Source: Pecten maximus
Lineage: Eukaryota
Reading direction: 5' to 3'
DNA length: 64,000 nucleotides
Assembly (NCBI RefSeq): GCF_902652985.1
Contig: NC_047016.1
Span: 10,912,001-10,976,000, forward strand
Shown: piece by piece, positions 6,484 to 61,734 of the stretch
How the letters are laid out: each line of letters opens with the position of its first letter
Numbering within the stretch: the first letter of the stretch is position 1
The notes under the pieces: generated by a model
Database searches by the model: none
The model's input: the letters and a program-made list of their open reading frames with translations, nothing else
What the model was told of the DNA's origin: nothing
Program-made: the position numbers and the translations under genes

Positions 6484-6507
6484 GATTCCAGTGATGTAGT
6501 GAAACCA

Positions 6508-14134: not shown

Positions 14135-14204
14135 CCTAAGATAGTGACACTGATGTGACGGGTTAGACTGGAATCGTTTTCGAAGGAAATGTTTTGAATG
14201 TTTC

Positions 14205-34636: not shown

Positions 34637-35836
34637 GGCCCATGGACCTCTTGTTTATCACAATTTTTAATTTTGCACCCAATTCGACATAAGGTTTTAT
34701 GAATACTATTGGAGTCCTGACGCTGTATTTCTGTTTTCTAAACTCACTTGGTTAATAATAAAATTAAAAGGGAGGTCTTCACTTCAACTCCGAGTGTTGA
34801 AGTTTACCTTGTTTATCACGCCTTCCCTTTCACACTCCAGCATACAGTATCATGTATATCTTGTAATTAGACATTCACTAGTTACCAAATAAACATCTAG
34901 ATATTACCCAAACCTGTTATAAATACAAAAGATATTCCAACCATGAGCTGATTTCTGACACCCTGTTTATTTGTTTTTGTTTTACTTATGATACCAGAAT
35001 CTTAAATAACTTTCCCATCCCTCTATACATTTATAGTGTCCTTGACCCGCACATGGCTATTTATATCATTATTACTTTGCTTAAAATATCTGTATATATT
35101 GTAATCAAAATGATTTTATAAGAATTCTATAAGTGTTATATCTGGAAGTTACAGAATTATCAGGTGAACTTGTTTATAAACATTGAAACCATATATTTGT
35201 TACATGTCATTTCATTTTATTGTAAGGAAAGGAAAACACTGTTCGTCATTGTGGCATTATAGACCTCAGTGTTCGTCACTTCCGCTTTACAGTCAAGCGT
35301 TTTAGTGTTGCAATGATGATTATGTGCCAGTATTTATTTCTAAAGATGTGTTATTAAAATAAAGCATGTTTAAATATAGCCAAATGTTGTTGTTGTTTGT
35401 TTGGTTTTTTGTTTGTTGTTTTTTTGTCGATTTTGATCTGTTTCCACAACATTCCATTTTATCCACACGGAAGATGATGATATCCGGCTGTGTGAATTAG
35501 TACATGTATCTCGGTACTGAAATGGGTACATGTTAAAGCGGAGAAAATGAAACTGATTTGAGAAGGACGAGCTTTAAAATATCGTAGATGTATTACTGGG
35601 ATACGAGGAAAGTCCGCTAAATAAAACAGAACAAAACAACTTGTTGATACACAGTGTCATTGATATCTTATAGTAAAGTAGGTTTCCTGCTCAAAGAGAT
35701 CGACCATAGTTCCACTAAAAACAACAGAGAATCCAGACGTTATAACAAAACCGTAATTCTTACTAATAAATCGATGGCAGCAAAGAAATATCAATTTGCA
35801 TTGATACCTTAAACTGTACACGGAGAATAAGACCAG

Positions 35837-36197
35837 GCCCCGGGATCATGAAGCAGACTTAAGTCTAAGACTAAACTTGGACTTAAGTCTTAAGATTTTA
35901 CTTAGCTAAGACCGCAATCTTAAGTGGATCATGAAACGTGCTAAGCATAATCTTAGCTGAGACTAAACTTAAGTCGAAATCTATAGCAACGCGCGCGCTG
36001 ATTCGCGTATTTGCGGTAATCCATTGGAACTCTTCAGCGCGGGAAACCATCTTCTGTCGTCTGCTGTCAATGTAAACAATGGAATCTGTCAACAGAGGGT
36101 GAAAGTCAAATTGGACCGGGGAGGAGGAGGTTATGCTCGTTGAAGAGGTTTCCAACAGCGAATCTCTGCTGTTTGGAAGGCACGATGGCGCCTCCAG
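35837..36197 (+). repeat. 361-bp Harbinger left-end unit (T allele at 36100, nonsense in Myb exon 1)
   Basis: Runs from the TIR tip to an internal CAG; the next TIR starts at 36198. Confidence 0.95.
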
Positions 36198-37709
36198 GCC
36201 CCGGGATCATGAAGCAGACTTAAGTCTAAGACTAAACTTGGACTTAAGTCTTAAGATTTTACTTAGCTAAGACCGCAATCTTAAGTGGATCATGAAACGT
36301 GCTAAGCATAATCTTAGCTGAGACTAAACTTAAGTCGAAATCTATAGCAACGCGCGCGCTGATTCGCGTATTTGCGGTAATCCATTGGAACTCTTCAGCG
36401 CGGGAAACCATCTTCTGTCGTCTGCTGTCAATGTAAACAATGGAATCTGTCAACAGAGGGAGAAAGTCAAATTGGACCGGGGAGGAGGAGGTTATGCTCG
36501 TTGAAGAGGTTTCCAACAGCGAATCTCTGCTGTTTGGAAGGCACGATGGCGCCTCCAGGACACAGCAGACGAAGAGCAAAGTTTGGCAAGACATTGCCAA
36601 TCGCCTGAATGCGTACGTATACAGTAGAGCTACCAAATTGTTGTGTGCTTGAAGTTTAATTGTTGTGATTCCTTAAAATAATGTTTATGCTGCTATATGT
36701 TAAACTGCATATTAGGTTGGGGACGCGTATCTGTCATGAATTCAGCGTGCCCTCAGTACTCTAGTCTAGAATGAATATCAATACCCTGACAACACTGCTC
36801 TCTGACGAAGATCTTCTGTCAGAAATCGTCCATCCATGTGTACTGTACTGGAAACCCTGTACTGTACACCTTCGAGAGTTTGAGGGATATTCACGTATCT
36901 AAGTAACTTATTTATACACATTTACCCGTCAAATTACTGTTGAAGTGCATGTAAAAAAATATTGACTTTTTAGAAGTTCTGACGTGATTATTTCTTAGAT
37001 TATAGATGTTTATTATATTTGACTTTTATATAGATTCTACATATGTTTGACAAAAAAAAAATCGTTTTTTACTCAAATATTCAATAATTTCAAAATTCAA
37101 TCCTCCTTAATTGTCAATTGATCTGATATTGATGAGCGGACATTTGTCTTCCATTGATGGCTCCAAATTATTTTATACAGGGAAAACACAATTTTACAGT
37201 TACGATAGCTTGTATGCCACACACTTGTCTTTGTAGCAATATTAATGATTGCAACTAGAATTAACTAGGGAGAAACACTGTTCAGGTTTTAGGAAATAAC
37301 CTACATTATCTGTGTACATACAGCTGATATATGGGATTCATAATTAAAAGTATAATGTAAGCGACTAAAAATCAAAAAGTTACATTTACTGCACATGAAG
37401 ATTGGTTTATTGTTTGCGCTGAAGCAATCCGCATAGCACTATTTCACAGTATTTGAACCATAGAAAATGAGAGATGTTGTAAACATTAAAAAAATCCTCT
37501 CATTTGGTTGTAACACTAACAGGTTGTCAATAATGACAAGAAAACCAGTCAGCAAATTGAGCAGTTTATTTATTAATTAATTTATAGATTTATGAATAGG
37601 CCTGCCTTGCAACAAACCTTATAAATACAAATATACAGTATCTAGACTCTTAAACTCAAGGGAAACATCTCTCATTCTTGCCAAATATCATTTTACCACT
37701 TTAACTCTT

Positions 37710-38914
37710 TCTTTTTTTAAATTGTTTTATTTTTCAAAGCTTTTAATACAGATACCATAAGACAGAACATAGAGGGACATACACACTTACCCATACACAT
37801 TCCGATGTACACACACATAACTCGGGACATACATTTGTACATGTATACACACTTACCCAGACACATTCCCATGTACACACACATAACTCGTGACATACAC
37901 ACACACTTACCAACACATATTCCCATGCTTACAGATAAATACTCCCATGCTTTATAATTATCATCACATTCTGCTCACCATTAAACAGTACAAATTAAGA
38001 AGCACCTACATGTACATACATATATATAAAACAAAATAGACAAACAAAATGGAGACAAACAGACAGACAGATGAGAGAAAACTGAGACAGACAGGTAGAG
38101 AGGTTCCCATACACTTTTATTTACTGACAAGTTACTACTTACTAATGTTTAGAAAATATGAATACAAGTTATAATTTCTAATATGGTGTTGTGCCATTAA
38201 AATATAAAGCAATATACTGTATATATATAACACATACAGGTATATATAAAGAAAAACTACATGTTCAAGTGCCATATTAGTCATATTTCTAACAAAGGCA
38301 TCCACTTTCTCCAATTACTTTCAAACTTCTTTTGAATGTTATCACTTTTACTTGAAATGATATACTTTGTACATTATAATGATCTTTAATAACATTAATT
38401 AGTGCATTTATATTAAGAGTTTTATGAAGATATCCTGTTTTATAAATATCATGTTTAATAATTATTAGTATTTTATTATTTATTGTGAAGAAGCTACTCC
38501 AAAAAGTAGAGAATCTTTATTCATTAGAAATGGGATGATAAACAAAATATCAAGCAGAGCTTAAAATCTTTCAAAAAGAGTTTGAACTTCAATACATTCC
38601 CATAAGCAATGTAGTTATTGTTTCCCTTTCCTATTACACAGTGAGCAAATTGGAGTAGGATGTAAATTAATTCTTAAAAGAAATGTATTGGTTACTAAAA
38701 TGTGGTGTAGAATTCTCACTTGAATTTGAAGTTTTGTACTTTTTGTTACAATAAAAGGAATTTTAAAGGTTTTTTCCCCATTTCTTTTTGTCATACTCAA
38801 ATTCCTCATTCCATTTTATTGTACCTGTTGGTGTGATTGCAGGAGTTATCAAGCAGTTATACAAATCTATAGAGCCTTTTTTTTTCTAAAAATTTTTTTT
38901 TCAAATTCAAGGTA
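37710..38914 (-). mobile_element. 5'-truncated degenerate L1/Tx1-like LINE inside Myb intron 1
   Basis: Frameshifted ORF2 C-terminus: KGSIDLY..KW, ILHHILVTN..CSLC..HCLWEC zinc knuckle, KFESNWRKW. AATAAA and A-rich tail near 37710-37735. Candidate TSD tttaactctt at 37700-37709 and 38915-38924. Confidence 0.75.
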
Positions 38915-39772
38915 TTTAACTCTTCTTATACACTTTCACAAATATTACCATTTCAGTAAAACATCTGGCAGCTTTGTAGTTACATTGAAATGAATTTATA
39001 AAATCAAATTGGAAAAAACAACATTACTCGAAAATGATTCAATAATAATAACTTCATACAGCAATAGAATTATTTAAATGCAGAACAAATCAAGCAAATA
39101 AATACAATATAACAAGTTAGTTACAACATTTCCTAAAAACATGTTTAAATTGTTTAAAATAAAAAGTTCACTCTACCACATGATATTTATTCATTATAGA
39201 TATATAGGTACTTTATTTTTTTCTGATTTCACAACAATTCTGTTATTACATATATATATTTGGTCTGAGAACAAACACAAACAGGAATATCAAATCTGAA
39301 TATGTTGAGATTATATTTGTATTTATCCGGCAACTGTCGAAATACACTCACTATATTTATTGTTGCTGTGTACGGCAGTGACAGAAAGCATAAATACTAT
39401 TTAAATAAATAAAAAATTCAAATGCACCAATTTAACACAGAAAATTTATTTCATATTTTTAACATTGAATTTCTGAAAGTTTAGTGTATAGGCATTTTGG
39501 AAGCTTCCCAGTCAATGATTAGACTTGTTTTTAATTCTAATCATCATCAGAAATATATGAATAAAGAAGATTAATATAAAATATCAATCCTATTAAAAGA
39601 AGACATACATGATTTAAATAAAACTGATTGTCACTGGCATAATTGTAAATAAAACATAAACAAATTGAAATCATTTGATTTGTCTGAAGCTTAGAGAAAG
39701 GTTTGAGAAGATATAAGATAGATGATAATATAGCAACAAGATTTTTTAATATGAAGTTTAATGGTATGTATA

Positions 39773-39931
39773 TGTAACCCTGGTAAATACTAGCCGCAAT
39801 ATACCGCTCGGCTAGAGAGATCTTCTCTTTAGCTCGATCGGATGAGCGTAAGACTAGTAAGCCAGAGGTCCCGGGTTCGATCCCTAGCGGAGGCAGTGAT
39901 TTAAATTCAATTAATCATGTGCTCTGTTACA
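39773..39931 (+). mobile_element. 159-bp TGT...ACA element with tRNA-like core (solo LTR of a tRNA-bearing TRIM, or Ginger-like MITE)
   Basis: Ends tgtaac/gttaca, TSD tata, A box tagctcgatcgg, B box ggttcgatcc. Confidence 0.7.
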
Positions 39932-41064
39932 TATATCAAAATACAAATGTGTCTAAAAATACTTTTAAAAGCTGCTAGGTAATTTTTGTTTATTTATTTA
40001 TCTCTTTGAGTATCTAAGTAAAAGCTCATGTAAAGATTTTCTTTCTACTACAAATGTTCTTCTTTTCCAAATTTCAGCAGAAACACATCACTGCAGAGAA
40101 AGGTGCCGGAAATTAAAAAGAAATACCAAAACATCAAGCAGAAAGGTATGATAGTGTTCATTGAACATTATGTTGTTGACATTAGATTTTTATTTATGAG
40201 ATCAACATCATGTTTTAACATAGAACTTAGCATTTTTGAATTCTATAACATGAATGTAGTTATGAAAGCATCATAAACGGTGTATGAAACATAGTTATGT
40301 AAGATACCGGTATTTACATGTTACAAAAATCTTGTTTAATAGCACTGCATCACACTTCCTATTCTCCACAGATAAGATTTATCCTTAAATGCTTAATTGA
40401 CTGTCTATGTTTTAGAATAATCTAAGATGTAGTCAAATTTTTCATTTGAATGTTTCCATCCATCCTTTTGTCTTTATATCAATTGTCCGAGCTCTATGTC
40501 CTACACTGCTTGTCACTGAAACCTCATACCTGGGCCATAAGTTCACCCAAGTCAGGTGGTGTGTCATTTGTGAAATGTAGGTCACTGTGATATACAATGC
40601 ATTTTGACTTTTGACCTATATCTGTATTATCAAACAAATTTCCTGTCTGATCAGCTGCTTATCTTGTCATTGAAACTTCAAACTTGGTATCAATTTCATT
40701 GAACTCCTGATATACACTACCCCAGTAATTAAGATTAGGAAAATCTATGAATTAATTCACATTTTAACCCAGATGTTATATACGACAAATTACTTTGTAT
40801 ATGGCCTAAATGTAAACAGTACTGAGCCCAGTGACAGATGGGCAGGGCTGAAATGGGTCAGTTTGAGTAAACTACATCAGGCTCCGGGATCATGAAACAG
40901 ACTTAAGTCTAAGTTTTGACTTAAGCTTAAGATTTTTGACTTAAGTCTGAAAACAGACTTAAATCGAGGTTCATGAAATAAAACTTAAGTCTTAAGTCTA
41001 TTTTTCAGTCTTAAATCCTAAGACTGCTACAGGGCAGACTTAAGTCCGTTTTTTTGTCTTAAAT

Positions 41065-44000
41065 ATGGCGGACATAGTAAGATTAGTTGATCGTCTGCGA
41101 CAACGAGAAGAAAGGAGAGCAGTTCGTCCGAGGACCTTTAGAGATCGGCTTAATCCTTTGGAGATGAGGACAGATGAGGAGTTGTACGCCAGGTACAGGT
41201 TCAGGAGACCCACCTTGCTATTTATTGTTCATTTGGTCGCCGATAGTATAACGCATCCAACGAGAAGATCCCAAAGTCTGCCTCCTCTCATACAGGTTCT
41301 CGTTTTTTTGAGATTTCTGGCGACAGGGGCATTTCACCAACTGATTGGCGACGCCATTCACATATCAAAGGCCACTGCTGGACGCTGCATCCGTCGTGTT
41401 GCGGACGTCCTCGTTAGATTGCGTGGGGATTTCATCAAATTCCCGACTGGGCAGGCGGCAGACAACACAAAACGTGCCTTTCACGCTATTGCAGGTGCGT
41501 ATTTCCAATTAAAAGACATAAATGATATCGAATCTAGTACCACAGACAAGTTTTGAGCGTTCCACTTGATGTAAACAATGTGACTGCAGCGCCCCCATCG
41601 ATAATTACGTCATATAGTACTATGTACCGTATCTAAACAAATAAACGCCCTCATTGTTATATATGTGTGTTATCAATCGTATGAGAAGGGTTTCCCTCTG
41701 TTATAAAAACATCGTTAACAACAAAAAATTGTCTAATCAGCTCTTTGCTGAAAGTCAACAATTGTGAAGCTTTGATCAATTAAAATTGCAGGTAGAAACA
41801 GTTCTAGATCAAATTATATGTTTGTTCTTATTTTTTTTTTTATTTCAAGATATTCATATGAAATGAAATATTGTTTTAATACTTATTAAGTGTACTATTT
41901 CAATTTCACAATTGTAATACTTCCATTTCATAGTGTACTTTGTCATTGTACAGTACATGTGCTTGTACATATCACTATGAATTTAAAAATAGTTAAAAAA
42001 CAAAACAAAAAAGAAAAATTATTTGTTTAATATAGCTTTTATTTGGGAAACAACTTAGGATTCATAACAGTAATTAAAATATATATATATTGCACATGCA
42101 TATGTACAGCTTCCTGTTTCAAGCAATTGATTGTCCTTGAAATAACATAAAAAGAAAATTTTGATCAAATGTCGTGATTCGAACCGAGCAAAATATCATT
42201 TGGGGCTTTCTGAAACTAGTTATATATGAATAAAAATTCAAGAACAAATGTGAAAATCTGCACAACTTAGGACCATGTGTAATGTGCATATTGAAATGAA
42301 ATAATTCTATCTAACTGCTTCAATTTAAGAGGAGGCCCATGGGCCTCAACAGTCACCTGAGTTTAGAAATATTAAAGTTAATTTAATTTACCCTGCTGGC
42401 CCCGCCCATCAGCTCAGGGCCAACGTGTGCATACCATCGAGCTGTCATCCCATGCTGATAATGTTAACAAAGTTATTATGAATTTCAATAAAATCAAACA
42501 ACTGATAGTCAAAAATTTGATTTCCCTATATAAACTATTGTAAAGTTTACCCCCTCCTCAGGGGCAAACGTGAGACCCCAGGAGCATGAAATTTACAATT
42601 TTGGTAAAGTACCTGAAGACTTTTCCATGCATATGAAGTGTACTATTTTTAGGCCAACACCACCATATGTGCAAATATTTACATAAGGAAGCGTTTTCTA
42701 AACTGCTGGCCAAAGACTGCAGTAATAAGTTCCACTAAAGAAACAAATTCATAATTCTAAAACTTCATTAAAATCTGGTTTTATTTTCATATTGTAGAAC
42801 TATTCTCTCAATATTAAACTACATGCATTTTGATATTGGAATAACACTATTTTCTTCAATCTTCACATTTAGAAGTAAAAAGTTTTAAACAGTTGTCGAA
42901 ATTGCAGGCCTCAGACCGCAAGTAATTACCATCTACGTTCTTTTTAAAAAAATTTTTATAGACAATCCATAAATTTACTCGACATGGGCCACTCATGATG
43001 ATCACAAAGACACTGAGACTGACTTTGAACTACAGGGAAAGTCTCAAAACATCATTTTAATAAAATGGCTATGTCAAACAAACAAACAAACAAACAATTT
43101 TCCTTCTCTCATTTGTATCATTATGTTTTTATTGGGTTTTTCGAAGAAGTTTTTTTTTTAAATTTCAGTTAATTTCAATTTCAACACATTTTATTGTCAT
43201 TTAATTCGACAAATGGATCTGACATCAGGCATAGCCTATTTAAGTCATCTCCATATAAACATATATACAGGTAACAATTTTTTAATCTCGAATATAACAG
43301 AAGTAGTATACATAATTTTATATATATTAACAGGAACATATATATGAATATCTCTTGGATATGACTTGTTAGCAGGACCCACTCGATGAGATCGGCTGAT
43401 GTTGGCCTCTGTAATCATGATACCAAGTTCATTTAAAATCATTTGACCCTTTTTGACATTGCCCATAAGCCAAAGGAGTCAGGCAGTTTATAAACTAAAA
43501 ATCTTGAATTGTGTATTTTTAAGGCATGCCACAGGTATTGGGATGCATTGATGGGACATTTGTCAGAATATCTACACCAAGAGAAAATGAACCTGACTAT
43601 GTCAATAGAAAAGGATTCCATTCTCTGAATGATCAGGTATAATGTGTAAAAATAGAAACTTTAATATTGATCAAGATTTCATGCAGAATGGATACCTTAA
43701 TTGCTACATGTATTTAAGAAAAGAATAGTTTTATCTGTGACAAGTACTGCATTCATGTTAGCTCACTGAAATGTATACATTGTATTTACCTGGTATTAAA
43801 TCTCAAATACATGCATACCACATTCCCCAATGTGAAGTCTATAATTCTTTCATTATTTAATATGAAAAAAAAACCACCTTTGAAATATGCATACTTATTT
43901 CACTTTCACAGATGGTCTGCAACAACAACTTCATCATAACCAACTGTGTGGCCCGTTGGCCTGGTTCATGTCATGACTCAAGAGTGTTCCGAGAAAGTCA

Positions 44001-44705
44001 GCTTTGTCATGACTTTGAAAATGGTAATAAACATTCATGTAAAACTATGTACTGTACCCTATAAAATTGATGTTACATCAATATATCAAGTTCATCAAAC
44101 AATATATATCATTTTCATTTGTTACAAATCATTTGTGGTATATCCAAATATTTATGAAGATTTAACAGTACATAATTATAATTTTGAATAAGAAGATATA
44201 TTACTTTTGAGAATTAAATTGAAAGTAATGTCACTTTACACAATGATATATCTATGAATGATGAATAAACAATGAAAAGAGAAACTTGAAGAAGCTATAA
44301 TCCTTAATTATAACAGACCTATACAGTGGATTCCTGCTAGGGGACTCAGGCTACCCTTGCCGCAGGTATTTGATGACACCATACAATCACACCAATGATA
44401 TTAGACACCGGGAGCGATTCAATGGAGCATTGTGTAGAACAAGAGTGGTCATCGAGCAGACGTTTGGAATTTTGAAGAGGCGCTTCAGCTGCCTATCAAT
44501 TGGTCTGAGAACAAACCCAAACAGAGCATGCAAATATATTGTGGCATGTGCCATATTGCACAACATAGGTATCTTAAGACAAGATATAGTATCAGAAACA
44601 GTTGATGACCTAGTAGTACAAGGCCCAGATGTTCTGGAACATAATCATTTAAATGAAAATGGATTTGGGATAAGAGAGAACATGGCAAGAAACCTTTTTT
44701 CTTAG
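41065..44705 (+). CDS. Harbinger DDE transposase (HARBI1-like), inverted copy, 347 aa; exons 41065-41494, 43524-43636, 43912-44023, 44317-44705
   Basis: 430+113+112+389=1044 nt open, GT-AG introns. Motifs [22 protein letters not shown](D)[38 protein letters not shown]. Confidence 0.92.
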
Positions 44706-45083
44706 TAATTTTCTATAGCTAGGTACTCTCTGGAGTGGGGCAGTGCAAGCATATATATATATATTTATGGGCCAGTGGGGTTAGAGTCACCATTCAAAAT
44801 CTGTTCCCCTTTTTCCAAAGATTTTTGTGACCAAATAAGATAAAAATCTATTCAGAACTTATAAGAGCAGTAATTTATAGGGCTTAGATTACCTCTATTT
44901 TCCCAATCAGACCCCGCCCATTCCGCACTTTGGGAGTCACCCCTTATGCAAAATCTGCTCCCTTCACCCAATGATGTTTCTGACCAAATTTGGTTAAAAT
45001 CCACAAAGTATTTTATGACTAGTAGCGGTTAAAAGAAAATGTTGACAGAACAAATTGTAGTGGAAAAGTTTCAGAAACATTAT

Positions 45084-46022
45084 TTATTCTTCAAAGGAAG
45101 GCTCAATTGCCTTAATTTGAAGAATAGCAAGATGTTTCTGAATCTTGACCAGTTCAATCCTCTCCAGAATCAGATTCCTTGCGTCTTTCACTCGGGCAAG
45201 TTCCTCCAACAATACTTCATCAGACAAATCTTTTTTCTGTTTTGATGATGTACATGTAGATGTGGCTGTATGTGGGGCTGTTAATCCATCTGTGTGTGTG
45301 GCTTGTGATGCTGCTGGGGAGATATAAGTTATTGGCATATCCATATCAACTCCTGAATAAGTTGGTAGGATGTTGATAAACCCAGGTGAAAGAGGCACTG
45401 AAAAAAAAGAATACATATGCATATGCATGTATACAATAAGATAAAGACAGCATTATCAACTCAATACCGTATTTTATCGGGTATAAGCCCATGATCAAGG
45501 ATAAACCCCCTCCCCCCTATTTTTCACTTTTTTTCTGCAAAGGCTCGGTAAGACATTTTATATGACATGGCAAAAAGACATCACAAAGAGATTTTGACAC
45601 CAACAATTGAATGATCTTTATTGGACCTTTTCCTTTTAATGTAAATCATTTGTTTTCTTATCGTCAAGTTTCAATATTGAGACATAAGAGAAACTGTATA
45701 AGTTTTTACTATATAACTCAAAATTGGCACAAGGAACTTGTCCGAAAGACCCACTTGAGTAATAGTAACAAGTACATTGACAGGTCAGAAAGGCCCATCA
45801 TGTGATGATATACATCATTGAAAAAAATTATTTAATGAATTGTATTTTGAGATATTTAATACCCTTTAACCATACCAGCAGTGTCAATTCCTTCAGAGAG
45901 TCCACAGAGACTTGGTCTTCCCTCCAGGTTCTGTAATACCAGCCTTTCTGGCACTGTTGGTGAAGCTGGTTTCTTGCCACCACCAGTCTTTGGGTGCAGT
46001 AATCCTGATCTTTTTTCTTTTG
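45084..46022 (-). pseudogene. Orphaned Myb/SANT exons 3-4 (45876-46022, 45084-45397)
   Basis: Reverse complement of 51644-52582, separated from the promoter and exons 1-2. Confidence 0.85.
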
Positions 46023-46131
46023 CTACAATATACAAATGTATTATATTACATCTCAGTTTGTATCAATCAAAATGTGCCTTGTGTTTCATTTTCACAAGGG
46101 GCCTAATGGCCTTATAGGTCAATGTGTTCTG

Positions 46132-46853
46132 GCCCCGGGATCATGAAGCAGACTTAAGTCTAAGACTAAACTTGGACTTAAGTCTTAAGATTTTACTTAG
46201 CTAAGACCGCAATCTTAAGTGGATCATGAAACGTGCTAAGCATAATCTTAGCTGAGACTAAACTTAAGTCGAAATCTATAGCAACGCGCGCGCTGATTCG
46301 CGTATTTGCGGTAATCCATTGGAACTCTTCAGCGCGGGAAACCATCTTCTGTCGTCTGCTGTCAATGTAAACAATGGAATCTGTCAACAGAGGGAGAAAG
46401 TCAAATTGGACCGGGGAGGAGGAGGTTATGCTCGTTGAAGAGGTTTCCAACAGCGAATCTCTGCTGTTTGGAAGGCACGATGGCGCCTCCAGGCCCCGGG
46501 ATCATGAAGCAGACTTAAGTCTAAGACTAAACTTGGACTTAAGTCTTAAGATTTTACTTAGCTAAGACCGCAATCTTAAGTGGATCATGAAACGTGCTAA
46601 GCATAATCTTAGCTGAGACTAAACTTAAGTCGAAATCTATAGCAACGCGCGCGCTGATTCGCGTATTTGCGGTAATCCATTGGAACTCTTCAGCGCGGGA
46701 AACCATCTTCTGTCGTCTGCTGTCAATGTAAACAATGGAATCTGTCAACAGAGGGTGAAAGTCAAATTGGACCGGGGAGGAGGAGGTTATGCTCGTTGAA
46801 GAGGTTTCCAACAGCGAATCTCTGCTGTTTGGAAGGCACGATGGCGCCTCCAG
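46132..46853 (+). repeat. Two tandem 361-bp left-end units (46132-46492 A allele; 46493-46853 T allele)
   Basis: Each begins at the TIR tip and ends at the same internal CAG. Confidence 0.95.
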
Positions 46854-47095
46854 GCCCCGGGATCATGAAGCAGACTTAAGTCTAAGACTAAACTTGGACT
46901 TAAGTCTTAAGATTTTACTTAGCTAAGACCGCAATCTTAAGTGGATCATGAAACGTGCTAAGCATAATCTTAGCTGAGACTAAACTTAAGTCGAAATCTA
47001 TAGCAACGCGCGCGCTGATTCGCGTATTTGCGGTAATCCATTGGAACTCTTCAGCGCGGGAAACCATCTTCTGTCGTCTGCTGTCAATGTAAACA

Positions 47096-50000
47096 ATGGA
47101 ATCTGTCAACAGAGGGAGAAAGTCAAATTGGACCGGGGAGGAGGAGGTTATGCTCGTTGAAGAGGTTTCCAACAGCGAATCTCTGCTGTTTGGAAGGCAC
47201 GATGGCGCCTCCAGGACACAGCAGACGAAGAGCAAAGTTTGGCAAGACATTGCCAATCGCCTGAATGCGTACGTATACAGTAGAGCTACCAAATTGTTGT
47301 GTGCTTGAAGTTTAATTGTTGTGATTCCTTAAAATAATGTTTATGCTGCTATATGTTAAACTGCATATTAGGTTGGGGACGCGTATCTGTCATGAATTCA
47401 GCGTGCCCTCAGTACTCTAGTCTAGAATGAATATCAATACCCTGACAACACTGCTCTCTGACGAAGATCTTCTGTCAGAAATCGTCCATCCATGTGTACT
47501 GTACTGGAAACCCTGTACTGTACACCTTCGAGAGTTTGAGGGATATTCACGTATCTAAGTAACTTATTTATACACATTTACCCGTCAAATTACTGTTGAA
47601 GTGCATGTAAAAAAATATTGACTTTTTAGAAGTTCTGACGTGATTATTTCTTAGATTATAGATGTTTATTATATTTGACTTTTATATAGATTCTACATAT
47701 GTTTGACAAAAAAAAATCGTTTTTTACTCAAATATTCAATAATTTCAAAATTCAATCCTCCTTAATTGTCAATTGATCTGATATTGATGAGCGGACATTT
47801 GTCTTCCATTGATGGCTCCAAATTATTTTATACAGGGAAAACACAATTTTACAGTTACGATAGCTTGTATGCCACACACATGTCTTTGTAGCAATATTAA
47901 TGATTGCAACTAGAATTAACTAGGGAGAAACACTGTTCAGGTTTTAGGAAATAACCTACATTATCTGTGTACATACAGCTGATATATGGGATTCATAATT
48001 AAAAGTATAATGTAAGCGACTAAAAATCAAAAAGTTACATTTACTGCACATGAAGATTGGTTTATTGTTTGCGCTGAAGCAATCCGCATAGCACTATTTC
48101 ACAGTATTTGAACCATAGAAAATGAGAGATGTTGTAAACATTAAAAAAATCCTCTCATTTGGTTGTAACACTAACAGGTTGTCAATAATGACAAGAAAAC
48201 CAGTCAGCAAATTGAGCAGTTTATTTATTAATTAATTTATAGATTTATGAATAGGCCTGCCTTGCAACAAACCTTATAAATACAAATATACAGTATCTAG
48301 ACTCTTAAACTCAAGGGAAACATCTCTCATTCTTGCCAAATATCATTTTACCACTTTAACTCTTTCTTTTTTTAAATTGTTTTATTTTTCAAAGCTTTTA
48401 ATACAGATACCATAAGACAGAACATAGAGGGACATACACACTTACCCATACACATTCCGATGTACACACACATAACTCGGGACATACATTTGTACATGTA
48501 TACACACTTACCCAGACACATTCCCATGTACACACACATAACTCGTGACATACACACACACTTACCAACACATATTCCCATGCTTACAGATAAATACTCC
48601 CATGCTTTATAATTATCATCACATTCTGCTCACCATTAAACAGTACAAATTAAGAAGCACCTACATGTACATACATATATATAAAACAAAATAGACAAAC
48701 AAAATGGAGACAAACAGACAGACAGATGAGAGAAAACTGAGACAGACAGGTAGAGAGGTTCCCATACACTTTTATTTACTGACAAGTTACTACTTACTAA
48801 TGTTTAGAAAATATGAATACAAGTTATAATTTCTAATATGGTGTTGTGCCATTAAAATATAAAGCAATATACTGTATATATATAACACATACAGGTATAT
48901 ATAAAGAAAAACTACATGTTCAAGTGCCATATTAGTCATATTTCTAACAAAGGCATCCACTTTCTCCAATTACTTTCAAACTTCTTTTGAATGTTATCAC
49001 TTTTACTTGAAATGATATACTTTTGTACATTATAATGATCTTTAATAACATTAATTAGTGCATTTATATTAAGAGTTTTATGAAGATATCCTGTTTTATA
49101 AATATCATGTTTAATAATTATTAGTATTTTATTATTTATTGTGAAGAAGCTACTCCAAAAAGTAGAGAATCTTTATTCATTAGAAATGGGATGATAAACA
49201 AAATATCAAGCAGAGCTTAAAATCTTTCAAAAAGAGTTTGAACTTCAATACATTCCCATAAGCAATGTAGTTATTGTTTCCCTTTCCTATTACACAGTGA
49301 GCAAATTGGAGTAGGATGTAAATTAATTCTTAAAAGAAATGTATTGGTTACTAAAATGTGGTGTAGAATTCTCACTTGAATTTGAAGTTTTGTACTTTTT
49401 GTTACAATAAAAGGAATTTTAAAGGTTTTTTCCCCATTTCTTTTTGTCATACTCAAATTCCTCATTCCATTTTATTGTACCTGTTGGTGTGATTGCAGGA
49501 GTTATCAAGCAGTTATACAAATCTATAGAGCCTTTTTTTTTCTAAAATTTTTTTTTTCAAATTCAAGGTATTTAACTCTTCTTATACACTTTCACAAATA
49601 TTACCATTTCAGTAAAACATCTGGCAGCTTTGTAGTTACATTGAAATGAATTTATAAAATCAAATTGGAAAAAACAACATTACTCGAAAATGATTCAATA
49701 ATAATAACTTCATACAGCAATAGAATTATTTAAATGCAGAACAAATCAAGCAAATAAATACAATATAACAAGTTAGTTACAACATTTCCTAAAAACATGT
49801 TTAAATTGTTTAAAATAAAAAAGTTCACTCTACCACATGATATTTATTCATTATAGATATATAGGTACTTTATTTTTTTCTGATTTCACAACAATTCTGT
49901 TATTACATATATATATTTGGTCTGAGAACAAACACAAACAGGAATATCAAATCTGAATATGTTGAGATTATATTTGTATTTATCCGGCAACTGTCGAAAT

Positions 50001-52582
50001 ACACTCACTATATTTATTGTTGCTGTGTACGGCAGTGACAGAAAGCATAAATACTATTTAAATAAATAAAAAATTCAAATGCACCAATTTAACACAGAAA
50101 ATTTATTTCATATTTTTAACATTGAATTTCTGAAAGTTTAGTGTATAGGCATTTTGGAAGCTTCCCAGTCAATGATTAGACTTGTTTTTAATTCTAATCA
50201 TCATCAGAAATATATGAATAAAGAAGATTAATATAAAATATCAATCCTATTAAAAGAAGACATACATGATTTAAATAAAACTGATTGTCACTGGCATAAT
50301 TGTAAATAAAACATAAACAAATTGAAATCATTTGATTTGTCTGAAGCTTAGAGAAAGGTTTGAGAAGATATAAGATAGATGATAATATAGCAACAAGATT
50401 TTTTAATATGAAGTTTAATGGTATGTATATGTAACCCTGGTAAATACTAGCCGCAATATACCGCTCGGCTAGAGAGATCTTCTCTTTAGCTCGATCGGAT
50501 GAGCGTAAGACTAGTAAGCCAGAGGTCCCGGGTTCGATCCCTAGCGGAGGCAGTGATTTAAATTCAATTAATCATGTGCTCTGTTACATATATCAAAATA
50601 CAAATGTGTCTAAAAATACTTTTAAAAGCTGCTAGGTAATTTTTGTTTATTTATTTATCTCTTTGAGTATCTAAGTAAAAGCTCATGTAAAGATTTTCTT
50701 TCTACTACAAATGTTCTTCTTTTCCAAATTTCAGCAGAAACACATCACTGCAGAGAAAGGTGCCGGAAATTAAAAAGAAATACCAAAACATCAAGCAGAA
50801 AGGTATGATAGTGTTCATTGAACATTATGTTGTTGACATTAGATTTTTATTTATGAGATCAACATCATGTTTTAACATAGAACTTAGCATTTTTGAATTC
50901 TATAACATGAATGTAGTTATGAAAGCATCATAAACGGTGTATGAAACATAGTTATGTAAGATACCGGTATTTACATGTTACAAAAATCTTGTTTAATAGC
51001 ACTGCATCACACTTCCTATTCTCCACAGATAAGATTTATCCTTAAATGCTTAATTGACTGTCTATGTTTTAGAATAATCTAAGATGTAGTCAAATTTTTC
51101 ATTTGAATGTTTCCATCCATCCTTTTGTCTTTATATCAATTGTCCGAGCTCTATGTCCTACACTGCTTGTCACTGAAACCTCATACCTGGGCCATAAGTT
51201 CACCCAAGTCAGGTGGTGTGTCATTTGTGAAATGTAGGTCACTGTGATATACAATGCATTTTGACTTTTGACCTATATCTGTATTATCAAACAAATTTCC
51301 TGTCTGATCAGCTGCTTATCTTGTCATTGAAACTTCAAACTTGGTATCAATTTCATTGAACTCCTGATATACACTACCCCAGTAATTAAGATTAGGAAAA
51401 TCTATGAATTAATTCACATTTTAACCCAGATGTTATATACGACAAATTACTTTGTATATGGCCTAAATGTAAACAGTACTGAGCCCAGTGACAGATGGGC
51501 AGGGCTGAAATGGGTCAGTTTGAGTAAACTACATCAGAACACATTGACCTATAAGGCCATTAGGCCCCTTGTGAAAATGAAACACAAGGCACATTTTGAT
51601 TGATACAAACTGAGATGTAATATAATACATTTGTATATTGTAGCAAAAGAAAAAAGATCAGGATTACTGCACCCAAAGACTGGTGGTGGCAAGAAACCAG
51701 CTTCACCAACAGTGCCAGAAAGGCTGGTATTACAGAACCTGGAGGGAAGACCAAGTCTCTGTGGACTCTCTGAAGGAATTGACACTGCTGGTATGGTTAA
51801 AGGGTATTAAATATCTCAAAATACAATTCATTAAATAATTTTTTTCAATGATGTATATCATCACATGATGGGCCTTTCTGACCTGTCAATGTACTTGTTA
51901 CTATTACTCAAGTGGGTCTTTCGGACAAGTTCCTTGTGCCAATTTTGAGTTATATAGTAAAAACTTATACAGTTTCTCTTATGTCTCAATATTGAAACTT
52001 GACGATAAGAAAACAAATGATTTACATTAAAAGGAAAAGGTCCAATAAAGATCATTCAATTGTTGGTGTCAAAATCTCTTTGTGATGTCTTTTTGCCATG
52101 TCATATAAAATGTCTTACCGAGCCTTTGCAGAAAAAAAGTGAAAAATAGGGGGGAGGGGGTTTATCCTTGATCATGGGCTTATACCCGATAAAATACGGT
52201 ATTGAGTTGATAATGCTGTCTTTATCTTATTGTATACATGCATATGCATATGTATTCTTTTTTTTCAGTGCCTCTTTCACCTGGGTTTATCAACATCCTA
52301 CCAACTTATTCAGGAGTTGATATGGATATGCCAATAACTTATATCTCCCCAGCAGCATCACAAGCCACACACACAGATGGATTAACAGCCCCACATACAG
52401 CCACATCTACATGTACATCATCAAAACAGAAAAAAGATTTGTCTGATGAAGTATTGTTGGAGGAACTTGCCCGAGTGAAAGACGCAAGGAATCTGATTCT
52501 GGAGAGGATTGAACTGGTCAAGATTCAGAAACATCTTGCTATTCTTCAAATTAAGGCAATTGAGCCTTCCTTTGAAGAATAA
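47096..52582 (+). CDS. Harbinger Myb/SANT-like DNA-binding protein, 233 aa; exons 47096-47268, 50735-50802, 51644-51790, 52269-52582
   Basis: 173+68+147+314=702 nt open, GT-AG introns (NAGNAG at exon 2). Motifs RKSNWT.EE..LVE, K.KVW..IA..LN, R..EIKKKYQN, KTGGG, GIDT and a C-terminal coiled coil. Confidence 0.9.
48365..49571 (-). mobile_element. Second copy of the L1/Tx1-like LINE fragment
   Basis: Duplicate of 37710-38914 at an offset of about 10,656. Confidence 0.75.
50430..50588 (+). mobile_element. Second copy of the 159-bp tRNA-bearing TGT...ACA element
   Basis: Duplicate of 39773-39931 with tata TSD. Confidence 0.7.
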
Positions 52583-52960
52583 ATAATGTTTCTGAAACTT
52601 TTCCACTACAATTTGTTCTGTCAACATTTTCTTTTAACCGCTACTAGTCATAAAATACTTTGTGGATTTTAACCAAATTTGGTCAGAAACATCATTGGGT
52701 GAAGGGAGCAGATTTTGGATAAGGGGTGACTCCCAAAGTGCGGAATGGGCGGGGTCTGATTGGGAAAATAGAGGTAATCTAAGCCCTATAAATTACTGCT
52801 CTTATAAGTTCTGAATAGATTTTTATCTTATTTGGTCACAAAAATCTTTGGAAAAAGGGGAACAGATTTTGAATGGTGACTCTAACCCCACTGGCCCATA
52901 AATGTATATATATATGCTTGCACTGCCCCACTCCAGAGAGTACCTAGCTATAGAAAATTA

Positions 52961-55900
52961 CTAAGAAAAAAGGTTTCTTGCCATGTTCTCTCTTATCCCA
53001 AATCCATTTTCATTTAAATGATTATGTTCCAGAACATCTGGGCCTTGTACTACTAGGTCATCAACTGTTTCTGATACTATATCTTGTCTTAAGATACCTA
53101 TGTTGTGCAATATGGCACATGCCACAATATATTTGCATGCTCTGTTTGGGTTTGTTCTCAGACCAATTGATAGGCAGCTGAAGCGCCTCTTCAAAATTCC
53201 AAACGTCTGCTCGATGACCACTCTTGTTCTACACAATGCTCCATTGAATCGCTCCCGGTGTCTAATATCATTGGTGTGATTGTATGGTGTCATCAAATAC
53301 CTGCGGCAAGGGTAGCCTGAGTCCCCTAGCAGGAATCCACTGTATAGGTCTGTTATAATTAAGGATTATAGCTTCTTCAAGTTTCTCTTTTCATTGTTTA
53401 TTCATCATTCATAGATATATCATTGTGTAAAGTGACATTACTTTCAATTTAATTCTCAAAAGTAATATATCTTCTTATTCAAAATTATAATTATGTACTG
53501 TTAAATCTTCATAAATATTTGGATATACCACAAATGATTTGTAACAAATGAAAATGATATATATTGTTTGATGAACTTGATATATTGATGTAACATCAAT
53601 TTTATAGGGTACAGTACATAGTTTTACATGAATGTTTATTACCATTTTCAAAGTCATGACAAAGCTGACTTTCTCGGAACACTCTTGAGTCATGACATGA
53701 ACCAGGCCAACGGGCCACACAGTTGGTTATGATGAAGTTGTTGTTGCAGACCATCTGTGAAAGTGAAATAAGTATGCATATTTCAAAGGTGGTTTTTTTT
53801 TCATATTAAATAATGAAAGAATTATAGACTTCACATTGGGGAATGTGGTATGCATGTATTTGAGATTTAATACCAGGTAAATACAATGTATACATTTCAG
53901 TGAGCTAACATGAATGCAGTACTTGTCACAGATAAAACTATTCTTTTCTTAAATACATGTAGCAATTAAGGTATCCATTCTGCATGAAATCTTGATCAAT
54001 ATTAAAGTTTCTATTTTTACACATTATACCTGAACATTCAGAGAATGGAATCCTTTTCTATTGACATAGTCAGGTTCATTTTCTCTTGGTGTAGATATTC
54101 TGACAAATGTCCCATCAATGCATCCCAATACCTGTGGCATGCCTTAAAAATACACAATTCAAGATTTTTAGTTTATAAACTGCCTGACTCCTTTGGCTTA
54201 TGGGCAATGTCAAAAAGGGTCAAATGATTTTAAATGAACTTGGTATCATGATTACAGAGGCCAACATCAGCCGATCTCATCGAGTGGGTCCTGCTAACAA
54301 GTCATATCCAAGAGATATTCATATATATGTTCCTGTTAATATATATAAAATTATGTATACTACTTCTGTTATATTCGAGATTAAAAAATTGTTACCTGTA
54401 TATATGTTTATATGGAGATGACTTAAATAGGCTATGCCTGATGTCAGATCCATTTGTCGAATTAAATGACAATAAAATGTGTTGAAATTGAAATTAACTG
54501 AAATTTAAAAAAAAAACTTCTTCGAAAAACCCAATAAAAACATAATGATACAAATGAGAGAAGGAAAATTGTTTGTTTGTTTGTTTGTTTGACATAGCCA
54601 TTTTATTAAAATGATGTTTTGAGACTTTCCCTGTAGTTCAAAGTCAGTCTCAGTGTCTTTGTGATCATCATGAGTGGCCCATGTCGAGTAAATTTATGGA
54701 TTGTCTATAAAAAAATTTTTAAAAAGAACGTAGATGGTAATTACTTGCGGTCTGAGGCCTGCAATTTCGACAACTGTTTAAAACTTTTTACTTCTAAATG
54801 TGAAGATTGAAGAAAATAGTGTTATTCCAATATCAAAATGCATGTAGTTTAATATTGAGAGAATAGTTCTACAATATGAAAATAAAACCAGATTTTAATG
54901 AAGTTTTAGAATTATGAATTTGTTTCTTTAGTGGAACTTATTACTGCAGTCTTTGGCCAGCAGTTTAGAAAACGCTTCCTTATGTAAATATTTGCACATA
55001 TGGTGGTGTTGGCCTAAAAATAGTACACTTCATATGCATGGAAAAGTCTTCAGGTACTTTACCAAAATTGTAAATTTCATGCTCCTGGGGTCTCACGTTT
55101 GCCCCTGAGGAGGGGGTAAACTTTACAATAGTTTATATAGGGAAATCAAATTTTTGACTATCAGTTGTTTGATTTTATTGAAATTCATAATAACTTTGTT
55201 AACATTATCAGCATGGGATGACAGCTCGATGGTATGCACACGTTGGCCCTGAGCTGATGGGCGGGGCCAGCAGGGTAAATTAAATTAACTTTAATATTTC
55301 TAAACTCAGGTGACTGTTGAGGCCCATGGGCCTCCTCTTAAATTGAAGCAGTTAGATAGAATTATTTCATTTCAATATGCACATTACACATGGTCCTAAG
55401 TTGTGCAGATTTTCACATTTGTTCTTGAATTTTTATTCATATATAACTAGTTTCAGAAAGCCCCAAATGATATTTTGCTCGGTTCGAATCACCACATTTG
55501 ATCAAAATTTTCTTTTTATGTTATTTCAAGGACAATCAATTGCTTGAAACAGGAAGCTGTACATATGCATGTGCAATATATATATATTTTAATTACTGTT
55601 ATGAATCCTAAGTTGTTTCCCAAATAAAAGCTATATTAAACAAATAATTTTTCTTTTTTGTTTTGTTTTTTAACTATTTTTAAATTCATAGTGATATGTA
55701 CAAGCACATGTACTGTACAATGACAAAGTACACTATGAAATGGAAGTATTTCAATTGTGAAATTGAAATAGTACACTTAATAAGTATTAAAACAATATTT
55801 CATTTCATATGAATATCTTGAAATAAAAAAAAAATAAGAACAAACATATAATTTGATCTAGAACTGTTTCTACCTGCAATTTTAATTGATCAAAGCTTCA

Positions 55901-56600
55901 CAATTGTTGACTTTCAGCAAAGAGCTGATTAGACAATTTTTTGTTGTTAACGATGTTTTTATAACAGAGGGAAACCCTTCTCATACGATTGATAACACAC
56001 ATATATAACAATGAGGGCGTTTATTTGTTTAGATACGGTACATAGTACTATATGACGTAATTATCGATGGGGGCGCTGCAGTCACATTGTTTACATCAAG
56101 TGGAACGCTCAAAACTTGTCTGTGGTACTAGATTCGATATCATTTATGTCTTTTAATTGGAAATACGCACCTGCAATAGCGTGAAAGGCACGTTTTGTGT
56201 TGTCTGCCGCCTGCCCAGTCGGGAATTTGATGAAATCCCCACGCAATCTAACGAGGACGTCCGCAACACGACGGATGCAGCGTCCAGCAGTGGCCTTTGA
56301 TATGTGAATGGCGTCGCCAATCAGTTGGTGAAATGCCCCTGTCGCCAGAAATCTCAAAAAAACGAGAACCTGTATGAGAGGAGGCAGACTTTGGGATCTT
56401 CTCGTTGGATGCGTTATACTATCGGCGACCAAATGAACAATAAATAGCAAGGTGGGTCTCCTGAACCTGTACCTGGCGTACAACTCCTCATCTGTCCTCA
56501 TCTCCAAAGGATTAAGCCGATCTCTAAAGGTCCTCGGACGAACTGCTCTCCTTTCTTCTCGTTGTCGCAGACGATCAACTAATCTTACTATGTCCGCCAT
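52961..56600 (-). CDS. Harbinger DDE transposase (HARBI1-like), 347 aa; exons 56600-56171, 54142-54030, 53754-53643, 53349-52961
   Basis: Open spliced frame with catalytic D (IDGT), D (GDSGY), E (VIEQTFG) and the canonical HSLNVQ. Confidence 0.93.
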
Positions 56601-57429
56601 ATTTAAGACAAAAAAACGGACTTAAGTCTGCCCTGTAGCAGTCTTAGGATTTAAGACTGAAAAATAGACTTAAGACTTAAGTTTTATTTCATGAACCTCG
56701 ATTTAAGTCTGTTTTCAGACTTAAGTCAAAAATCTTAAGCTTAAGTCAAAACTTAGACTTAAGTCTGTTTCATGATCCCGGAGCCAGGTGTTTCGGAAAG
56801 GCCAACGTCTTTTGGTTCTTTGACGGCATCTATCATGTCAATCTGGGTCAAATACGAGTCGAATTCTCAAAATGAGAACAAAGGCGGTCACAATGGACCA
56901 CTAGACACATAAACAACAAGCAACGAACACTGATTTCATATCGTATAATGAAATGTCATATTTTCAAATGAGATCACGATATCGACAATCTGTATCTCGA
57001 TATATTGCGCTGTTGATTTTTAAGTCAATCATCGACATCTGTCACGGAAATTTTGATAATTAGAAAAATATTTAAATATATAAAATCGACTGGGACATGT
57101 TAACACCGCGTGTATTGAAAGCAGGTATGTTTCTAGCAAGAAATGGAAAATTAACAATGGGGATATTTAAATCGTCACGCTTATCACACAGCTTGGTTGT
57201 TATCTGTTCCTGCCGGTAACGTTGTAAGTAAAGATAGAGGTAAACGTTTGGTGTTAAAATGTCTTTAGTGTCATTAATTGCAAAGTCTTAATGCCCAATC
57301 GACATTGTTAATAAAGATTTTGTTATTTTAAGATAACACATCGTCAATATATGTACATGCATCTATGAGTGAAATTGAACGACTCTGATAAGCTTGTTTA
57401 TATAATCTGTCTGATATGAAACAAAAACA

Positions 57430-58482
57430 AGCCAGCCAACAGAGGGGCACAGTGTGTGTCCCATGGGTATGTCAGTCAGCCAACAGAGGGGCACAGTGTG
57501 TGTCCCATGGGTATGCCAGTCAGCCAACAGTGGGGCACAGTGTGTGTCACATGGGTATGTCAGTCAGCCAACAGAGAGACAGTGTGTGTCCCATGGGTAT
57601 GTCAGTCAGCCAACAGAGGGGCACAGTGTGTGTCCCATGGGTATGTCAGTCAGCCAACAGAGGGGCACAGTGTGTGTCCCATGGGTATGCCAGTCAGCCA
57701 ACAGTGGGGCACAGTGTGTGTCACATGGGTATGTCAGTCAGCCAACCGAGAGACACAGTGTGTGTCACATGGGTATGTCAGTCAGCCAACCGAGAGGCAC
57801 AGTGTGTGTCCCATGGGTATGTCAGCCAGCCAACAGACTGGCACAGTGTGTGTCCCATGAGTATGTCAGACAGCCAACAGAGAGGCACAGTGTGTGTCCG
57901 ATGGGTATGTCAGTCAGCCAACAGACGGGCCCAGTGTGTGTCCCATGAGTATGCCAGTCAGCCAACAGACGGGCACAGTGTGTGTCCCATGGGTATGTCA
58001 GTCAGCCAGCCGAGAGGCACAGTGTGTGTCCCATGGGTATGTCAGTCAGCCAACAGACGGGCACAGTGTGTGTCCCATGAGTATGTCAGTCAGCCAACAG
58101 ACGGGCACAGTGTGTGTCCCATGGGTATGTCAGTCAGCCAACAGACGGGCACAGTGTGTGTCCCATGGGTATGTCTGTCAGCCAACAGACGGGCACAGTG
58201 TGTGTCCCATGGGTATGTCAGTCAGCCAACAGAGAGGCACAGTGTGTGTCCCATGAGTATGTCAGTCAGCCAACAGACGGTCCCAGTGTGTGTCCCATGA
58301 GTATGTCAGTCAGCCAACAGAGGGGCACAGTGTGTGTCCCATGGGTATGTCAGTCAGCCAACAGACGGGCACAGTGTGTGTCCCATGGGTATGTCAGTCA
58401 GCCAACAGACGGGCACAGTGTGTGTCCCATGGGTATGTCAGTCAGCCAACAGAGAGGCACAGTGTGTGTCCCATAGGTATGT
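57430..58482. repeat. 44-bp minisatellite (~24 units)
   Basis: Unit gtcagtcagccaacagaggggcacagtgtgtgtcccatgggtat. Confidence 0.95.
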
Positions 58483-58620
58483 CATTAGTCTGTTGGAAGA
58501 TCTGGTCACCAAACTCAATAAAAATGGTGTCGATCAAATATTAAATAATTCCCACTTTCTATGGGAGTTATCTCCTCCCATAAAATACTGATTGAAATGG
58601 TATTCCATCTTCATAATTTC

Positions 58621-60655: not shown

Positions 60656-61734
60656 ATACGAGCCGTAGTAGTAGCCTTCCCGGGACGGCATGGATGCAGT
60701 GGGAGTTACTCCCCCTGCCACATGGTATTGCTAGGCAGTAGCGTGGCGGAACAAAGGGGTTAATCTGACCTTGCATAGAGAGTGCTTGTAGTGTAAAAAA
60801 AAAAAAAAAAAAAAATAGAAAAGATCGCCGATTTGTGCGTGGACAACTCTCAGATAATATAATAATATAATAATCTTTCACGATGTACGTATCAATTATT
60901 GTCAGTCAAAGCTTAATTTGTTTGTTATAACAAGGAAATGCTGCAGTTGTTTTGAGTAAAATCAAACATTCTTTAAATTCAGAAGGGATGGAATCCATAT
61001 GACTTAAATATCAAATATACACTAACTTCAGTAATGTACCTTGGTTAATAATCCTTAAATGACAACGTATGTTATTCTTGTGTATAACATTATTTAAAGA
61101 TGGATAAATAAATCAAAAGCGGTCATGATAGCCGACGATGCATCGACTGTGTAACGAATAATGCAGGATAATTAGATTGTTTACCATCATGAGGAATAAC
61201 CAGGTTGTTTACTATCATGAGGGATAACCGGGTTGTTTTTCATAATAAAGACAAACAGGGTAGATACCACTAGGTACGTGTTACAGCAAATTTTGAGCTT
61301 CATTCTTCGAAAGATGGCCGTGCCGGTGTGAGAGAACAGGCATTAGAGATTTTTGGAAATAAATAAATAAATAAATGAAAAATAAAGAAATAAAAGATCC
61401 AGTAGTTTTTCACGCAAGTTCTGAAAAGTTAAAACTAATGACAAAATAGCAGAAATAACTCGTACTTTCAGACTAACTTATATTAACTATGCAAACAATT
61501 ATGAAACAACTGTTTCTCGTTTAAATACTTTGAAAAAATGGAAAAAAGCCCTTTCCATACTACAAGCGAAATGTTACCAAGGGAATCTCGAACAATTTTT
61601 TAGGTTGCGACAGAAAATCGCTATTGACATGAAACACTATATCGGAATATTTTTGTCACACATACTTACCGAATCTGATTTTCGGAGTTCAACCAACGTA
61701 GCCTCGTTTGAAGGTCCGAGATGCGGGGTTCGAC

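Follow-up and report, generated by a model that had tools for sequence, protein, structure and literature searches.

We analysed a 64,000-nucleotide stretch of the Pecten maximus genome (contig NC_047016.1, positions 10,912,001 to 10,976,000 of the forward strand; hereafter the window, with positions counted from its first base), in which a 21-kb block at 35837-56784 is formed by a transposable element of the PIF/Harbinger superfamily. Our reading is that the element represents a recently spread, NuwaI-type PIF/Harbinger family that makes CWG duplications (W, A or T) and inserts with a loose palindromic flank bias, A-S-A-Y/CWG/R-T-S-T (S, C or G; Y, C or T; R, A or G), likely read by the transposase, and that the 21-kb block likely arose when ends from sister chromatids inserted into CAG sites inside the element itself. 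We put the probability of this reading as a whole at about 0.7.

The outer insertion site

The block is bordered on the left by TAAGAC-CAG and on the right by CAG-GTGTTT, and the DNA flanking the outer junction is an old dispersed repeat. A preliminary description of this DNA had reconstructed the empty site as TAAGAC-CAG-GTGTTT, and the junction letters and paralogues of the flanking repeat bear this out. Of 27 alignments with paralogues, drawn from 25 fetched loci some of which overlap, 17 pass uninterrupted through the junction, and two empty paralogues, L262 and L264, read xxxGAC-CAG-GTGTTT; because these carry a single CAG followed by GTGTTT, the reconstruction is right. The target consensus of the zebrafish element Harbinger3_DR is AAACACCWGGTCTTT as quoted in PMC3016246, and the minus-strand empty site, AAACAC-CTG-GTCTTA, does match it at 14 of 15 positions. 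Since random CWG sites reach 14/15 in ~8 per million draws (28,157 background half-sites), this match is not plain chance. We ruled out ends that start with GG and have another duplication, as only CAG/CAG pairs are in register. A 17-bp target was reportedly described by Kapitonov and Jurka in 2004; we did not use this figure as evidence.

Target preference of the family and its relatives

We measured flank composition at the ends of the window family (family A) in 65 fetched loci outside the window, using an end rule blind to the flank: at most two mismatches to an 18-base repeat pattern, GC as the first bases, and at least 20/30 identity to one of the element's ends in the window. Ends with altered first bases fell out; 50 ends were kept, and four of them were dropped for near-identical flanks, leaving 46. 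CWG adjoins the terminal repeat at 35 of these 46 independent ends. When the 35 half-sites were compared with the 28,157 background CWG half-sites (p values are one-sided and uncorrected throughout), the inner flank A-S-A-C of the Harbinger3_DR consensus was enriched at all four positions, -4 to -1, each with p<1e-4: A at -4 in 22/35 (background 0.31, p 9e-5), C or G at -3 in 25/35 (background 0.37, p 4e-5), A at -2 in 27/35 (background 0.31, p 2e-8), and C at -1 in 19/35 (background 0.20, p 6e-6), where T accounted for another 11/35 and C or T together for 30/35. By contrast, A was not enriched at -5 (8/35, p 0.89) or, with a borderline value, at -6 (16/35, p 0.06). The inner four positions contain 2.03 bits of information, as against a maximum of 0.68 in 2,000 random samples; the outer two contain 0.16 bits, a value reached by 27% of random samples. 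Matches to AAASAC average 3.34/6 against a background of 1.81, with 6/6 in one of the 35 half-sites and 5/6 in two. The preliminary description had proposed a flank logo from other copies and from miniature transposons with inverted repeats (MITEs); the counts above show flanks that are non-random at -4 to -1, which rules out a CWG target with random flanks.

Two other young families, B and C, were located via the transposase, theirs being 50% and 55% identical, respectively, to that of the window, and the terminal repeats of both differ from those of family A. Family B gave 23 ends (22 after duplicate removal, 20 with CWG) and family C gave 33 (30 and 20, respectively). Family C half-sites have A at -4 in 15/20, S at -3 in 13/20, A at -2 in 15/20 and C at -1 in 15/20, with A at -5 in 12/20 (p 0.007) and at -6 in 8/20, and a 6/6 match in 2/20. 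Family B half-sites have S at -3 in 17/20 and C at -1 in 13/20, and T is the commonest base at -6. What all three families have in common is a core of S at -3 plus a pyrimidine at -1; in families A and C it is extended by A at both -4 and -2. When the three were pooled (75 half-sites), the inner four positions were enriched with p values of 1e-8 or less, and A was not enriched at -6 (26/75) or -5 (27/75). Because the bias is common to families whose terminal repeats differ, the read-out of the flanks probably lies in the transposase. The earlier suggestion of a target specificity conserved despite different terminal repeats thus holds for much of the inner bias, which families B and C share with family A, but not for a conserved 15 bp.

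The 14/15 score of the window site raises the question of whether the family has a true 15-bp target resembling the Harbinger3_DR consensus, with poorer sites reflecting flank decay or second-choice sites. The window site is the best of 13 and would be a ~0.3% draw under family A's own base frequencies, family C has its A bias at -5 and its two full half-sites, and one older family A end reads AAAGAC-CAG. However, the 20 youngest family A ends, which give a pattern like that of the full set, are no better at the outer positions (A at -5 in 3/20 and at -6 in 8/20), four copies that are 99.4-99.9% identical and have both ends lie in targets scoring 8, 11, 11 and 10 of 15, and among paralogues of the flanking repeat, those that have a good site carry no insert. 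In a hand-picked set of 12 other insertions with both ends readable, from which more decayed pairs were left out, scores ranged from 7 to 11 of 15 with none above 11, and the duplications matched in nine of the 12. We therefore consider a true 15-bp target very unlikely; strict 15-bp specificity is ruled out by the flat -5 and -6 positions together with paired sites of at most 11/15. Family A instead has a loose palindromic preference of ~11 bp, A-S-A-Y/CWG/R-T-S-T, and the 14/15 of the outer site marks the upper end of a degenerate distribution, its high score probably being the reason why that site drew attention. Of the 15-bp specificity that had been thought to be shared with a vertebrate element, the inner four positions stand and the outer two are at background; the accompanying suggestion of a sequence-selective integration system is not sustained, at ~2 bits of flank information per half-site.

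Several points weigh against this account of the target. The samples are small (35, 20 and 20 half-sites), an insertion could enter them once for each of its halves, and decay may have altered the flanks of old MITEs. Family B is without the A bias at -2 (8/20) and is weak at -4 (A in 10/20, p 0.057). The values for family C at -5 and for family A at -6 leave room for a weak outer preference, and Harbinger3_DR itself may be equally loose in its targeting.

Three family A ends (L038, C14:14669068; L015, C11:8829327; L025, C18:5261209) lie beside an identical GCTCAC-C(T)G stretch in a single dispersed repeat, suggesting a recurrent hot spot in another repeat; L038 and L025, which were among the ends dropped above, are probably independent insertions. 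Another family A copy (L198 ~1100-1130, C4:48283605) is apparently inserted ~20 bases inside the end of a family G element, flanked by CTG; family G is Harbinger-like, with a transposase 34% identical to that of the window. Two 98%-identical copies of family F2 (L196 on C10 and L197 on C3) have crossed duplications, CTG...CAG and CAG...CTG, the pattern that would be expected from reciprocal exchange between the two sites or from an assembly swap. The duplications of family E (L191-L193) seem variable by eye (CAG, CGG, GGG), and the ends of family D (L187-L190) follow CTA or similar; families D and E are other PHIS groups (PHIS being the PIF/Harbinger superfamily) in the same genome.

Structure and origin of the 21-kb block

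The preliminary description had treated 35828..56793 as a single insertion. The outer junctions stand, but self-comparison gives a 9.93-kb unit, which rules out one 21-kb element, and 35837-56784 is a rearranged double of that unit (Table 1). If the element is written L-s-a-t-B-R, where s and t are internal CAG sites, the window reads CAG, Ls, Ls-a-t, R'B't', Ls, Ls, Ls-a-t-B-R, CAG. The 5.25-kb inverted duplication in this arrangement results from ends joined exactly at internal CAG sites. At all five internal junctions the first base of a terminal repeat lies directly against CAG or CTG, and none of these junctions is present in other copies. The new junctions, CAG/right end at 40880/40881 and CTG/left end at 46131/46132, have the target duplication. 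A copy of site t flanks the inverted arm at either side, the pattern expected of a transposase that inserts a left and a right end together at t. Sites s and t both score 7/15, but the inner-four matrix places them 15th and 29th among the element's 275 CWG sites; given these ranks, we make no claim of relaxed targeting at self-insertion sites.

Table 1. Features of the 21-kb block and its target site.
Feature	Position	Strand	Basis or remark
Left target half TAAGAC and CAG duplication	35828..35836 (TAAGAC 35828-35833, CAG 35834-35836)	+	Sequence
Outer left terminal inverted repeat, starting GCCCCGGGATCATGAA	35837..35868	+	30/32 first bases match the right repeat
First 361-bp left-end unit (left-end tandem duplication)	35837..36197	+	Ends in CAG site s; next left end starts exactly at 36198
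Left arm A (Myb exons 1-2)	36198..40880	+	Ends at CAG site t, 40878-40880
Inverted copy of right arm B	40881..46131	+	Opens with right terminal repeat, which abuts CAG exactly; last bases CTG, 46129-46131; 99.85% identical to 51535-56784
Transposase gene in inverted arm	41065..44705	+	Inferred exons 41065-41494, 43524-43636, 43912-44023, 44317-44705; 347 amino acids, no stop
Two extra 361-bp left-end units	46132..46853 (starts 46132, 46493)	+	Left end joined exactly to CTG of site t
Complete 9,931-bp element	46854..56784	+	Self-comparison and comparison with other copies
Predicted Myb/SANT gene (ORF1)	47096..52582	+	Exons 47096-47268, 50735-50802, 51644-51790, 52269-52582; 233 amino acids, no internal stop
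Internal CAG site s (flanks CGCCTC / GACACA), at +361	47212..47214	+	Target of left-end tandem duplication
Internal CAG site t (flanks CTACAT / AACACA)	51535..51537	+	Intact here; duplicated at 40878-40880 and 46129-46131
DDE transposase gene	52961..56600	-	Four inferred exons 56600-56171, 54142-54030, 53754-53643, 53349-52961; 347 amino acids, without stops
Outer right terminal inverted repeat	56753..56784	-	Sequence
Right CAG duplication copy (56785-56787) and right target half GTGTTT (56788-56793)	56785..56793	+	Within old dispersed repeat

In the mechanism that we favour, the Myb protein would bind the terminal repeats and bring the DDE transposase to the ends, and the complex would cut the target with a 3-base stagger at CWG, both by analogy with Harbinger3_DR and Ping/Pong (PMC2836001), with the transposase presumably reading the flank bases. 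Following replication, one chromatid's left end would be excised together with the other chromatid's right end; inserted at site s (+361), these hybrid ends would give the left-end tandem, and inserted the other way round at site t they would give A-CAG-R'B'-CTG-L. Hybrid-element and sister-chromatid transposition yield inverted duplications in P and Ac/Ds (PMC3744419). The scallop block resembles the products of P hybrid element insertion and Ac/Ds sister-chromatid transposition (PMC3744419; bioRxiv 2020.01.07.897926) in that ends from two copies meet at one target and the duplications are bounded by exact ends. By contrast with those systems, the scallop element belongs to another superfamily, its targets form part of its own sequence, and the evidence for the event is an assembly instead of direct observation. 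No hybrid-element product was reported for PIF/Harbinger in the literature searched, Repbase entries being outside that search. The self-insertion structure appears to be the more unusual feature of the locus, with a probable origin from sister chromatids.

The main alternative for the block is that an excised element integrated into itself as an inverted circle, which then entered a chromosomal copy by a single crossover. This would give the same final order, L-A-t-R'B'-t'-L-A-t-B-R, with the same exact junctions, would allow small differences between the halves, and would draw on a process, self-insertion, that has been proposed for long PIF/Pong elements (PMC10288884). We nonetheless regard the circle as unlikely: it needs two rare steps rather than one, the left-end tandems follow directly from a hybrid-end event, and the diagnostic variants of one half recur in the other half and in the C14 copy, so that no distant copy is implied. 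A further possibility is that the inverted duplication and the left-end tandems are an assembly artefact of near-identical copies. The arms are >99.8% identical and no read support was obtained for the junction; however, an artefact gives no reason for terminal-repeat ends lying exactly at CAG, for the duplication of t on both sides, or for a second CAG site, s, and the junctions are lacking from other copies. We consider an artefact highly improbable.

A sister-chromatid origin has evidence against it as well. The halves differ by ~0.1-0.15%, more than a brand-new event would give. Among the contigs listed for four sequencing runs in the region 45880-46480, none bridges 46131, with 24 pieces and three loose ends falling outside that list; and runs X3 and X5, from two other samples, have one unbroken contig through site t. 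Runs X2 and X4 have a coverage hole over the B side of the junction. Runs that we guessed to be RNA contain 0.49-0.76 of the words of 45600-46500 and were not used as evidence.

The transposase of the inverted arm differs by one amino acid from the second copy, and both frames are open. In the first, rearranged unit (36440-43636), the inverted transposase has Myb exons 1-2 (241 bases, phase 1) upstream on its own strand; because exon 2 of the inverted transposase starts in phase 1, a spliced Myb-transposase fusion would be in frame.

The element, its genes and its place in the NuwaI group

The element has the traits of PIF/Harbinger (PHIS) elements: a transposase of the DDE_Tnp_4/HARBI1 type, a Myb/SANT open reading frame (ORF), terminal inverted repeats and a 3-bp duplication. 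We derived the splice models of both genes from GT-AG signals and reading frame. The 347-amino-acid transposase frame contains D153/D228/E265, and its last exon matches DDE_Tnp_4 (PF13359, E 3.9e-17); exon 1 of the Myb/SANT gene matches Myb_DNA-bind_5 (PF13873, E 3.9e-11). The nearest proteins to the transposase, named putative nuclease HARBI1, are from oysters and abalone and are 65-72% identical, and a record labelled scallop protein (P0037) is identical over 203 amino acids. The four other copies with both ends, on C4, C13, C14 and C16, have the identity given above over their aligned parts, and the genome also contains shorter derivatives and MITEs of 70-160 bp. The C16 copy (L168 3620-5350) holds a 1.73-kb insert of another repeat, the full C4 copy (L003, L033; C4:32021326-32030937) is embedded in a short tandem repeat in which its own target site recurs to left and right, and a solo right end of 371 bp lies at C4:25673930 (L161).

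The two ORFs and the CWG duplication are what defines the NuwaI group according to Han et al. 2015 (PMC4482050), who list HARBINGER3_DR in it as NuwaI-2_DRer, together with four oyster families and one sea-anemone family. CWG in molluscs was thus already known from the oyster families listed there. Based on its gene content and on a duplication of the NuwaI type, found at the 35 of 46 ends described above and confirmed by the empty paralogues L262 and L264, the scallop element appears to be a new, recently spread member of this known group. It shares with NuwaI (oyster NuwaI-1 to -4_CGig and NuwaI_NVec; PMC4482050) the CWG duplication, a DDE transposase and a Myb/SANT ORF, short terminal repeats and an animal host. 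It is larger, at 9.9 kb against a NuwaI average of ~4.5 kb, and its repeats start with GCC or GCT whereas those of NuwaI usually start with GGG, a start described as usual and not as defining (PMC4482050). Over 73 aligned residues of the DDE blocks (Fig. S3 of PMC4482050), identities counted by eye were 48 for NuwaI_NVec, 44 for NuwaI-2_CGig and 39 for Harbinger3_DR.

Harbinger3_DR has the CWG duplication and the same preferred bases at -4 to -1 as the scallop element, and its proteins are of similar length (343 and 221 amino acids, compared with 347 and 233). It differs in the outer A at -5 and -6, which is not enriched in the scallop family, in the common T at -1 of that family, and in its terminal repeat, listed as 12 bp as against ~32 bp; the nearest transposases that we found to that of the window are molluscan. 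We built a midpoint-rooted transposase tree of 53 rows, comprising the window protein, seven families of the same genome and 45 proteins hand-picked from 230 stored. The window transposase and families B and C fell into a 17-row clade (support 99/96) in which the 14 named proteins are all molluscan, and the window protein was also in a 50-row clade (100/100) with proteins whose DDE blocks match those of published NuwaI members by eye, in a tree without named reference sequences. No protein with the published Harbinger3_DR DDE blocks was among those stored from three protein searches, and Harbinger3_DR is thus outside the tree. The phylogeny that had been proposed for placing the transposase alongside Harbinger3_DR and HARBI1 accordingly groups the window protein with molluscan proteins and leaves its position relative to Harbinger3_DR to the DDE-block counts.

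An extended target preference is described for all characterised PIF/Harbinger elements (PMC2836001), those of plants covering 9 bp and those of vertebrates 15 bp; plant PIF and Ping/mPing have 9 bp around TWA, compared with ~11 bp around CWG in the scallop family. Both the extended preference and CWG in molluscs are therefore already described. In the literature searched, flank bias was not described for CWG Harbingers of invertebrates, with Repbase Reports and the figures of Han et al. outside that search. The 10-bp flank logos in Figs 1 and 4 of Han et al. 2015 may already show the inner bias; the text gives only the CWG duplication.

The rest of the window

A single-frame ORF of 345 amino acids at 5551-6588 on the minus strand encodes two domains, PAN and fibrinogen C-terminal (Pfam E 3.5e-51), and its predicted product is a typical fibrinogen-related protein. 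Long minisatellite arrays lie at 14130-15380, 17050-20750 (with an 18-bp unit at 17-20.7 kb), 27090-27840, 57400-60900 and 63000-64000, and several short palindromic MITE-like repeats, together with minisatellites, occupy the remaining window.

Implications

Because the family is not a 15-bp integrase, and has ~2 bits of flank information per half-site beyond CWG, it is of low value as a targeted tool. Its remaining use is as a set of natural two-gene elements that are young and intact. As their transposases are 50-55% identical and their ends differ, families A, B and C make it possible to test directly which of the proteins recognises the target, an issue that PMC2836001 raises for the superfamily.

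A broader interpretation, which we offer tentatively and ourselves hold to be doubtful, is that the NuwaI target code is fixed at the four bases beside CWG from molluscs to zebrafish, independent of the terminal repeats, that individual lineages can tighten or relax the centre and the outer bases, and that the locus also records a PIF/Harbinger sister-chromatid self-insertion whose 5.25-kb inverted repeat could yield a hairpin RNA that silences a still-active family, like maize Ac killer alleles. Inverted duplications of this kind give rise in maize to double-stranded RNA by which Ac is silenced (bioRxiv 2020.01.07.897926). Should the internal junctions be confirmed, the scallop locus would represent alternative transposition in a PIF/Harbinger element and a candidate self-made silencing allele.

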